Shown here: one piece after another, positions 21,762 through 46,978 of the stretch
Layout of the letters: every line of letters starts with the position of its first letter
Numbering within the stretch: the stretch's first letter is position 1
DNA from: Mobula birostris
Lineage: Eukaryota
Length of the DNA stretch: 64,000 nt
Direction: 5' to 3'
Assembly (NCBI RefSeq): GCF_030028105.1
Contig: NC_092374.1
Location: 32,621,016 to 32,685,015, forward strand
The notes under the pieces: model-generated
Told to the model about the DNA's origin: nothing
Database searches by the model: none
Seen by the model: the letters and a program-made list of their open reading frames with translations, nothing else
Translations under genes and position numbers: made by a program

Positions 21762-22004
21762 TTAGCTGACATATGGCCTGGTGTAGATTGCCTTTAATGC
21801 AAGTAATAATTTAATAACTGGTGTGCACAATGCTGTAATTACAGGCAGGCTATAATATTGAAGGTAAAATGAGATATCGTGGACTTTTATTAACCCAAAT
21901 ATTTTCAAAATCCCCCGTTTTGTTGGAGGAAGGCATCGGAATCGCCAGTAGCTAACAATGTCATGGTAGCAGTGAAGATCATGCCCTGATACTGCTAGGT
22001 CGGC
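21762..22004 (-). CDS. 4-TM gene last coding exon (TM4)
   Basis: ttgcag|GCC; encodes ADLAVSG...YWRFRCLPP...FYLQYYSLPVITALCTPVIKLLLAL...YVS*. Confidence 0.88.
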   Translation of the reverse strand, partial: ADLAVSGHDLHCYHDIVSYWRFRCLPPTKRGILKIFGLIKVHDISFYLQYYSLPVITALCTPVIKLLLALKAIYTRPYVS

Positions 22005-46000: not shown

Positions 46001-46978
46001 TAGGATAGGATCTATTATTCTAGATTACCTCTCCTAATTCTTTTGCCAAAATACATCACCTCACATTTCCCAACATTAAATTTTAACTGCCATACATCTG
46101 GCCATTCCACCACCCTGTTTACTTCCTCTCCATTATTACTGTGCCGCAATACTGAAAAATGTGTCATCTGCTAACTTAGAAATTATGAATTGCATTAATA
46201 TAGTCCTCCACCCCAAAGAAAATGACAGTACTCACACTAACTTCTGGGGGATGTTTCAGTCCATCTTCTTGCAGTCCAGAAAAAAAAAACACTCACTACG
46301 ACCCTCTTTTGTGTTACCCATCCAACATCACATCTATTCCATCTGTGTCCCTTTTATGTCACGTGCTTCAACTTTGCTGATAAGCTTGTAATGTGGCATC
46401 TTATCAAAAACCTTTAGGAAGTCTACATACGCATCAACTGGATTACCCTCCAGTCAAACAATTTTATTGAATTGGATAAACAGGACTTGCCCCTTGGCAT
46501 GAGTCCTGAAGGTACCACCTGACTAACCATCTTATTTGAGGATCTGACAGCTTAATGGAATTCCCAAAAGCTTGTTGAGTCTGGGCTTCCAAAATTATAT
46601 TTCACAAAATTTCGTGGGAAAGAACATTAGTTAAGTAGAAATCTTAAGTCGATTCAGAAAGAGTTTCATGAAGTACTAACTGGTTTAAGCATAGTGAAGA
46701 TGAATATTCATTGGAAGAGTGATATTGAAGCATTCTTCTATCTCAGACCTTAGTACTTACATCAGATGATCAAGTGTGTTTGAAATTAAAGGTGTTACCA
46801 ATCGATGCCGTGGAGTAAGAGAGATTTTTCCTTTCTCATTAGGAGATCCATTGATCTTCCTTCTATTTGCAAAGAGCTGCTGAGATTGTATTTTTATTCC
46901 AGTATGGAGATTCTTGTATCCACGGCATGGAGTGACATCCGCTTCTTGAAATCTGTTTGATCCAGGTGTTGGAGCCAT
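21762..46978 (-). CDS. Uncharacterised 4-pass membrane protein, 381 aa; complement(join(21762..22004,27804..27921,32756..32907,36224..36360,36796..36913,39069..39151,42124..42200,46761..46978))
   Basis: Eight exons, all GT-AG, phases 2,1,0,1,0,2,0 all compatible; 1146 nt open, ending in TAA; four hydrophobic segments; upstream non-coding exon in the CpG island. Confidence 0.88.
22540..22659 (-). mobile_element. Short Penelope-like element 3' end (pLTR fragment)
   Basis: Same sequence as the ends at 31145 and 51954; 11-bp TSD CTTACAAATGC (22529-22539 / 22660-22670). Confidence 0.8.
23478..24274. mobile_element. Non-autonomous Tigger/pogo-like DNA transposon
   Basis: TIRs CAGTGGACTCTAGTTAAATG / CAATTAACTGGAATCCACTA; TA on both flanks. 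Confidence 0.75.
25064..27122 (-). mobile_element. CR1 LINE, 5'-truncated and relatively well preserved (RT domain)
   Basis: ORF pieces 26162-26737 and 25476-26285: [45 protein letters not shown]1 tail at 25064. Confidence 0.95.
27268..27465 (+). mobile_element. tRNA-derived SINE
   Basis: A-box-like TGGTGATGTAGTGG and B-box-like GGTTCAAATCC; non-tRNA body. Confidence 0.6.
27804..27921 (-). CDS. 4-TM gene coding exon 7 (TM3)
   Basis: gtatag|G ... CTG|gtaagg; encodes LALLVVAASWTLLMLKLLIAAQNLEHAIEGTVYRLIEEL. Confidence 0.88.
28520..29330. mobile_element. Penelope-like element remnant: GIY-YIG C-terminus with pLTR (- strand) and an inverted pLTR
   Basis: LGDHFTEHL.. and LGSFQSDGM-like peptides; inverted terminal copies; diverged TSD TTTATCTATT(AAG/GAC)TAAG. 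Confidence 0.8.
30292..30589 (+). mobile_element. tRNA-derived CORE-type SINE (family A)
   Basis: A box TGGCCAAGTGG, B box GAGTTCGAGCC, CORE-like GTGTCCTTGAGCAAGGCACTTAA; 14-bp TSD TTGCACAATATCCA. Confidence 0.9.
31145..32422 (-). mobile_element. Penelope-like retroelement, 5'-truncated: RT thumb/linker, GIY-YIG endonuclease and pLTR with hammerhead motif
   Basis: GVIYCVRCSLCGLLYIGETRCRLGDRFAEH...PVATHFN...EQHLIFRLGSLQPDGMN; Cys-rich linker; 14-bp TSD TATCCTCCTCACAA (31131-31144 / 32423-32436). Confidence 0.93.
32756..32907 (-). CDS. 4-TM gene coding exon 6 (TM2 and basic loop)
   Basis: ctacag|GAT ... TG|gtaagc; encodes FHVTFILYVMLYVAGIMILLYYLVDNMIQKSRLTPKRTKI. Confidence 0.88.
34230..35028 (+). 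mobile_element. Rex1/Babar-type LINE 3' fragment inserted in a decayed CR1 (~33150-35930)
   Basis: WCEQNYLQLNV.KTKELVVD, YKYLG, QSRLYFLRRLRSF, FYESVVAS, RKSFLPVAIKLYN; AATAAA and (TATGAC)n tail. Confidence 0.9.
36224..36360 (-). CDS. 4-TM gene coding exon 5 (predicted luminal loop with NQS sequon)
   Basis: tttcag|GC ... TTG|gtgagt. Confidence 0.85.
36796..36913 (-). CDS. 4-TM gene coding exon 4 (TM1)
   Basis: ttccag|ATT ... CATG|gtatgt; encodes GEVIGLAITSFLLSTAVFIMFEYL. Confidence 0.87.
39069..39151 (-). CDS. 4-TM gene coding exon 3
   Basis: aaccag|GT ... GGA|gtaagt; encodes LQQKQKLLQEKHLKAKSSVDKIPIGGG. Confidence 0.83.
39575..39995 (-). mobile_element. Degenerate Penelope-like pLTR fragment
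   Basis: Homologous to 31145-31620 and 28520-29130. Confidence 0.7.
42124..42200 (-). CDS. 4-TM gene coding exon 2
   Basis: gtacag|G ... CCAG|gtgagt; encodes SSIEKSHKKSEKPVSPNLAMLRMTP. Confidence 0.83.
42372..43800 (-). mobile_element. CR1 LINE, 5'-truncated; long RT ORF remnant at 42535-43650
   Basis: [57 protein letters not shown]. Confidence 0.95.
43810..44705 (-). mobile_element. Rex1/Babar-type LINE 3' fragment
   Basis: YREEIKNLVAWCEDNNLSLNVSKMKELVVDFRR, QRLYFLRKLKKF, RTARYGNSFFPTVIRLLN. Confidence 0.9.
46761..46978 (-). CDS. 4-TM gene coding exon 1 (MAPTPGSNRF...LDHL)
   Basis: Acceptor ttctag|AATAATGG; donor AT|gtaagt; only one open frame. Confidence 0.85.

Follow-up and report, generated by a model that had tools for sequence, protein, structure and literature searches.

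Which protein is encoded by the split reading frame on the minus strand of a 64,000-nucleotide stretch of the Mobula birostris genome (contig NC_092374.1, positions 32,621,016 to 32,685,015; hereafter the window), and what might it do beside the kinetochore gene CENPH? The original prediction had read it as a nuclear-envelope or endoplasmic reticulum (ER) cell-cycle protein with four transmembrane segments (TM1–TM4) and a basic N-terminus rich in cyclin-dependent kinase (CDK) sites. Our favoured explanation, to which we give about equal weight for and against, is that it resides in the ER or nuclear envelope of dividing cells, with its helix bundle on the luminal side, and that it is expressed in G2/M and switched by CDK. 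It belongs to an old, unnamed and apparently single-copy family with an apparent loss in tetrapods, most teleosts, insects and nematodes.

That the gene is real is virtually certain. Reconstructed between 46978 and 21762, the open frame runs over 8 exons as predicted (1146 nt, 381 residues, a single terminal stop), with GT-AG borders at 7/7 introns. The closest database protein to exon 8 is that of Mobula hypostoma (99% identical), other cartilaginous fishes carry proteins of 381–388 aa that are colinear end to end with the ray protein, and exons 6 and 8 each have one matching place in the 4-Gb genome. Contigs from public runs spanned the exon 3-4 junction in 4/4 runs and the exon 4-5 junction in 3/4, and those of all four runs end at the exon 8 acceptor and then continue into different sequence; the direct contig view of splicing is limited to these two junctions and this acceptor. 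The runs, which show scattered differences from the window sequence, are presumed to be RNA, a guess that fits the skipping of GT-AG introns in the contigs. In one contig 432 nt precede coding exon 3, which is 133 nt beyond what coding exons 1 and 2 supply and, by arithmetic alone, places the 5' end of the gene near 50428; the gene probably extends upstream to a non-coding first exon near 50296–50428. This candidate exon contains a three-codon upstream open reading frame (50320–50331, minus strand) that could damp translation. Much of the 25-kb gene span consists of long interspersed element (LINE) fragments with reverse-transcriptase frames and tRNA-like short interspersed element (SINE) copies (introns, e.g., 25060–27110, 30300–30600 and 42500–44900).

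The protein had been called an orphan of unrecognised family; no characterised family was found for it, but it does have a family of its own, reaching to sponges and a protist. Exon 8 and two profiles, used as queries, returned relatives in sharks, rays, chimaera, coelacanth, sturgeon, bowfin, gar, bichir, eels, tarpon, bonefish and bonytongues among vertebrates, and in hemichordates, echinoderms, amphioxus, annelids and molluscs among invertebrates (e.g., XP_038078146 of the starfish Patiria miniata). When 1.84 billion representatives were searched exhaustively with a profile, 170 proteins scored E ≤0.001, and the names among 30 looked-up hits added a brachiopod, a priapulid, two sponges and the protist Mantamonas. 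Full-length members have 343–441 aa, all with the four-helix layout, and ray and hemichordate members are 41–46% identical. The Mantamonas plastica fragment, a transcript covering TM2 to the end, scored E 4e-19 against a profile from which it had been left out; reversed, the same fragment gave no score. It also forms by far the longest branch in a quick tree; the branch length and the significant score with a silent reversed control argue against animal contamination. As the sole non-animal member named, it hints at a pre-animal origin and at unsampled protist members. The vertebrate subtree lies near the species tree, in a quick version of the tree that does not settle the invertebrate branching; together with one genome match per tested exon (two exons), this points to a housekeeping-like gene rather than a receptor repertoire. 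Parts of the bichir, amphioxus and Capitella records occur twice internally, which probably reflects duplicated exons or faulty gene models.

Source names for members are uncharacterized or hypothetical, save for a gastropod record labelled 'Gustatory receptor' at UniRef and 'hypothetical' at NCBI, which we take as an automatic name and not as evidence. No Pfam cut-off was passed by the exons, by five homologs, or by the 18 and 39 members of two alignments, the matches being generic hydrophobic ones; among sequences of solved structures the best hit had E 0.94, and Foldseek with the membrane domain gave nothing at E <0.001 in PDB or in viral models. The top viral-model match, an uncharacterised giant-virus protein of 444 aa (BFVD A0A3G4ZRZ0, Edafosvirus; E 0.39, probability 0.80, TM score 0.42), was not significant. 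The literature held nothing for 12 locus or accession ids of members or by description, outside of supplements (screens for seven-transmembrane (7TM) ion channels, cell-cycle transcriptomes) that could list members.

Loss in mammals had also been proposed. No mammalian member was found, but the apparent loss is wider: among named hits there was no tetrapod, clupeocephalan teleost, insect or nematode protein, with lungfishes, amphibians, lampreys and cnidarians left open. This statement covers an exhaustive search clustered at 50% identity, of which 30 of 150 listed hits were looked up by name, and a word-based search that overlooked several known members (e.g., Patiria and Lingula). Among 136 further hits, 12 had a vertebrate best match: 5 at 78–100% identity to lineages already seen, and 7 at 37–64%, about equally close to invertebrates. 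The family is old and well conserved yet unnamed, apparently since the main laboratory animals are without it.

How does the protein sit in the membrane? Four hydropathy peaks (residues ~143–161, 222–245, 261–283 and 350–372) agree with the four membrane segments proposed, except that TM4, which carries two near-invariant prolines and one basic residue, would be kinked and not a plain helix. No signal peptide was found, as all 19-residue hydropathy windows starting within residues 1–88 were ≤0.4. The N-terminal tail (residues 1–140) is hydrophilic and basic as described (24 lysine/arginine (K/R) vs. 10 aspartate/glutamate residues); residues 8–65 are predicted to be disordered and 66–135 to form short helices, the latter with strongly conserved S-P, T-P and G-G-G-x-S-x-W-P-x-M-x-x-M-R-L motifs. 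The membrane part was modelled confidently (pLDDT 87.7, pTM 0.80) as two hairpins. In the first, TM1 continues as a long helix, turns and comes back into TM2; the second comprises a six-residue basic loop, TM3 with a long extension, a 14-residue helix, a beta hairpin and the last helix. A profile comparison of the two hairpins gave no similarity that would indicate internal duplication (probability 0.2%). K/R residues are biased toward the side of the N-terminus, TM2-TM3 loop and C-terminus in 40/40 aligned animal sequences (mean near helices: 9.1 in 42 residues vs. 5.3 in 60 on the opposite side). The predicted NQS sequon at 197 lies in loop 1, where 27/40 sequences have a sequon, 19 of these at the N197 position (density per 100 residues: loop 1, 1.16; tail, 0.44; loop 2, 0). 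By the positive-inside rule, as given in PMC3962082, the K/R bias, together with the loop-1 sequons and the lack of a signal peptide, would put the tail on the cytosolic or nucleoplasmic side and the bundle on the luminal or outer one, and an N-in topology, as far as sequence can tell, is very likely.

The predicted cytosolic side is where signs of the cell cycle accumulate. The seven serine/threonine-proline (S/T-P) sites claimed for residues 1–140 are there, against 1.65 expected, a count reached in 0.0002 of 20,000 shuffles, and tails of 40 sequences hold 225 such sites compared to a shuffled mean of 63 and a maximum of 86 (2000 shuffles; 3.6-fold). The CDK-type sites hold up in the loop and the tail: [ST]-P-x-R in the TM2-TM3 loop (SRLTPKR in the ray, with TPKR at 255) is present in 40/40 aligned animal sequences, with T (31) and S (9) interchanging, S88-P89 is kept in 38/40 and [ST]97-P98 in 37/40. 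The TPCR site singled out earlier is not conserved, being TPCH in most sharks. In addition, 8/9 ray-finned fish tails examined contain a KEN box in the same alignment column, as do 3 non-vertebrate or unnamed tails; KEN is a degron of the anaphase-promoting complex/cyclosome (APC/C).

The promoter region points the same way. The CpG island at ~50300–50700 reads, in minus-strand order, CCAAT, CCAAT, GGCGG, four bases, CTTGAA, TTTGAA, which matches a cell cycle-dependent element/cell cycle genes homology region (CDE/CHR) with a 4-nt spacer as defined in PMC4176359, where CTTGAA is the functional CHR of CCNA2 and CCAAT boxes sit upstream of CHRs. The CDE/CHR pattern, chosen after the sequence was seen, arises in 0.002 of 3000 dinucleotide shuffles of the island; the CCAAT boxes are weak alone, because three boxes occur in 0.076 of shuffles. 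The inferred 5' end at ~50428 is ten bases from the element, which we assign to the membrane-protein gene because the element order, with CCAAT upstream and the 4-nt spacer, faces it. Of the kinetochore gene link that had been proposed, the adjacency stands, with CENPH on the opposite strand and a G2/M-type promoter element, but co-regulation is not implied by the layout, since the element order faces the membrane-protein gene and CHR sites between the head-to-head genes described in PMC4176359 did not give co-expression.

Several points weigh against a cell-cycle role at the nuclear envelope or ER. The excess of S/T-P is common in disordered basic tails, and the loop S/T-P, positioned where the TM3 helix begins, may serve to cap that helix; in Mantamonas the loop T-P is retained but the +3 arginine is not. 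The KEN box is absent from the tails of 8/8 cartilaginous fishes, this ray included, and of the coelacanth. Neither an ER-retention signal nor a known nuclear-envelope domain was seen, and by layout the inner nuclear membrane would fit no better than the ER or other membranes, all equally well. Nor can a family that mammals, flies and worms lack be essential to mitosis universally. The gene neighbourhood was seen in one genome only, and CHRs function in either orientation (PMC4176359), so that the CHR could serve CENPH; the first exon of the membrane-protein gene is, besides, a candidate placed by arithmetic.

In a different explanation, the protein acts at the surface, Golgi or cilium in gametes or embryos of aquatic animals; its proline-directed sites would be targets of other kinases or would cap helices, and CENPH would own the promoter element. 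Every named carrier is aquatic, the conserved sequon suits any secretory-pathway location, and contig coverage is uninformative on tissue. However, the promoter element order faces the membrane-protein gene, and neither KEN boxes nor the interchange of S and T at a full CDK consensus would be expected, and we consider this explanation unlikely. Overall, we hold cell-cycle control of the gene or protein to be probable, and a location in the ER or nuclear envelope is slightly favoured.

Under the favoured explanation of a CDK-switched ER or nuclear-envelope protein, DREAM would repress and MuvB complexes would activate the gene through the CDE/CHR, giving an expression peak in G2/M. TM1 would act as signal anchor, so that the basic tail, SRLTPKR loop and C-terminus face the cytosol or nucleoplasm while a glycosylated helix bundle lies in the lumen. 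At mitotic entry CDK1-cyclin B would phosphorylate the conserved S/T-P sites, so that positive charge is cancelled and the protein is released or re-routed; where a lineage has a KEN box, its removal on leaving mitosis would fall to APC/C. Copies might further clamp onto one another by their luminal bundles, around an axis formed by the kinked TM4 in the manner of helices 4–7 in insect receptor channels, and the clamped copies might shape membrane or pass ions or lipids while the ER and nuclear envelope are rebuilt; this clamping step, drawn by analogy, is rather doubtful. The family offers a cell-cycle-marked membrane component that is testable in classic mitosis and meiosis systems such as the starfish Patiria miniata.

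The two hairpins also allow the protein to be read as a second animal fusogen of the Brl1/Brr6/CLCC1 type, in which each half (TM, long luminal helix, turn, antiparallel helix, TM) would bend or fuse the two nuclear membranes, for pore insertion or for envelope resealing in fast-dividing embryos. The predicted element order of each half and the predicted luminal side are similar to the description of the Brl1/CLCC1 domain, in which a perpendicular amphipathic helix stands between the antiparallel helix and the last TM. A hydrophobic hairpin that is conserved in the second loop is reminiscent of the tip loop, likewise hydrophobic, of Brl1/Brr6, and the authors of the Brl1/CLCC1 work expect more divergent fusogens. 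Helix 196–219 is strongly amphipathic family-wide (moment 0.44–0.52), but may just be buried in the bundle. The conserved cysteine pair is absent (one Cys in 33/40 sequences; no Cys column at 85%), and the genome carries its own CLCC1 on another contig. Low-power tests (Pfam scans; two CLCC1 exons vs. the family profile, probability <1%) showed no profile similarity to PF10104/PF05934. We regard a fusogen as very unlikely.

With regard to origin and biochemical activity, the membrane domain could tentatively descend from the 7TM ion channel superfamily (insect Or/Gr, DUF3537, PHTF) through loss of helices 1–3 and flipping of helices 4–7, the flip being proposed because an odd number of N-terminal helices was removed. 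The anchor bundle would now be luminal, and the last helix would line a ligand-independent, phosphorylation-gated pore, which we hold to be possible but on balance doubtful. The split last helix (7a, linker, 7b) appears in both predicted models, as a 14-residue helix, a 16-residue linker with a beta hairpin and the last helix. The ray protein has four hydrophobic peaks instead of seven membrane helices, the TM7 motif (T/S)Yhhhhh(Q/K/E)(F/L/M) was not found in the ray family, and the K/R bias and loop-1 sequons suggest a luminal rather than a cytoplasmic anchor bundle. The 7tm, DUF3537, Brr6 and MCLC families were absent among the Pfam matches listed (25 of 40 in one scan) in single-sequence scans, which remote members often escape; likewise, Tweety, prominin-like, CLCC1 and other four-helix channels were absent among the 50 structural matches listed, which does not exclude them. 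Such descent is compatible with the favoured CDK-switched membrane protein and is a lead, not a result. If the fold link is true, chordates hold a four-helix, inverted branch of the 7TM ion channels, of a type that screens with a membrane-topology filter would probably have dropped, and a natural topology inversion by helix loss. In the fullest version, which we consider unlikely, a pre-animal family arose from the flipped pore-and-anchor half of the insect chemoreceptor fold, with ligand gating replaced by CDK1 and APC/C control. It would serve most animal phyla as a mitotic ER or nuclear-envelope channel or membrane shaper, and would have escaped notice through its loss in mammals, zebrafish, flies and worms.

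Coordinates of the membrane-protein gene and its promoter region in the window
Feature	Position	Strand	Remarks
CDE/CHR element	50438..50458	-	GGCGG, 4-nt spacer, CTTGAA, then canonical TTTGAA directly; sole match in the 64-kb window
Two CCAAT boxes	50472..50500		upstream of the CDE/CHR in the direction of the membrane-protein gene; third at 50609
Candidate first coding exon of head-to-head CENPH	50651..50709	+	ATG and donor in island; presumptive link to the CENP-H match
Candidate non-coding first exon	50296..50428	-	in CpG island; donor CGG|GTAAGG at 50296; placed by arithmetic, not aligned
Coding exon 1	46761..46982	-	ATG at 46978; residues 1-73; predicted disordered basic tail
Coding exon 2	42124..42200	-	residues 73-98; conserved S-P and T-P sites
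Coding exon 3	39069..39151	-	residues 99-126; conserved tail helix
Coding exon 4	36796..36913	-	residues 127-165; conserved W-P-x-M-x-x-M-R-L motif and TM1
Coding exon 5	36224..36360	-	residues 166-211; predicted luminal helices and NQS sequon
Coding exon 6	32756..32907	-	residues 212-262; TM2 and basic SRLTPKR loop
Coding exon 7	27804..27921	-	residues 262-301; TM3 and its long extension
Coding exon 8	21762..22004	-	residues 302-381 and stop; short helix, beta hairpin, kinked TM4
Probable 3' untranslated region (minimum extent)	20533..21761	-	single contig spans 20533-22003; AATAAA at 21114 and 20684

The neighbours of the gene, CENPH and two cyclin genes, count in favour of a cell-cycle role; in human the gene order is CCNB1-CENPH-MRPS36. 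A CENP-H Pfam match above the cut-off lies on the plus strand 9.8 kb past the window end, an exon further right is presumably MRPS36, and the next strong CpG island after that at ~50300–50700 is at ~76.6 kb in window numbering. To the left, 22 and 2.5 kb from the window, are two tandem cyclin genes (contig positions 32599295–32599435 and 32618521–32618673), which we assume to be B-type; they have similar C-terminal exons and a CpG-rich bin of their own before each, and probably reflect a cyclin B1 duplication. Within this cyclin-CENPH block, tail to tail with the membrane-protein gene, a plus-strand gene at ~3790–17040 shows a weak CARD match (6315–6569, E 0.007, below the cut-off) and coiled-coil exons (8580–8715, ~16780–17000). 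Remains of a long terminal repeat retroelement occupy 460–3000 (frames 772–1440 and 1242–2576), with similar sequence at both ends; from the look of their translations we take the frames to be gag-, protease- and reverse-transcriptase-like.

Among known systems, the CDK-regulated class of inner nuclear membrane and ER proteins includes LBR, LEM-domain proteins, TMEM201 and NDC1. The ray protein resembles this class at the motif level, in its basic disordered tail on the predicted cytosolic side, its conserved CDK-consensus sites, the clustering of proline-directed sites before several membrane helices and the lack of a signal peptide, whereas Pfam scans found no domain shared with it. With Brl1/Brr6 and CLCC1 (membrane fusion h-shaped domain) it has in common, by prediction, an N-in membrane hairpin whose long luminal helix is followed by an antiparallel helix running back, and Brl1/Brr6 also have long N-terminal tails; it differs in having two hairpins instead of one, no cysteine pair, and a separate CLCC1 in the genome. 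In the 7TM ion channels (insect Or/Orco/Gr, DUF3537, PHTF), helices 4–7 follow the same predicted order and lengths, namely three long helices overrunning the membrane, a short helix, a 13–16 residue linker and the last membrane helix, and these channels recur as a near-top structural match, although at background-level scores. Unlike them, the ray family has four helices, no ligand pocket and a single copy, and combines a disordered tail of CDK sites with a bundle that appears to be luminal where that of the channels is cytoplasmic.
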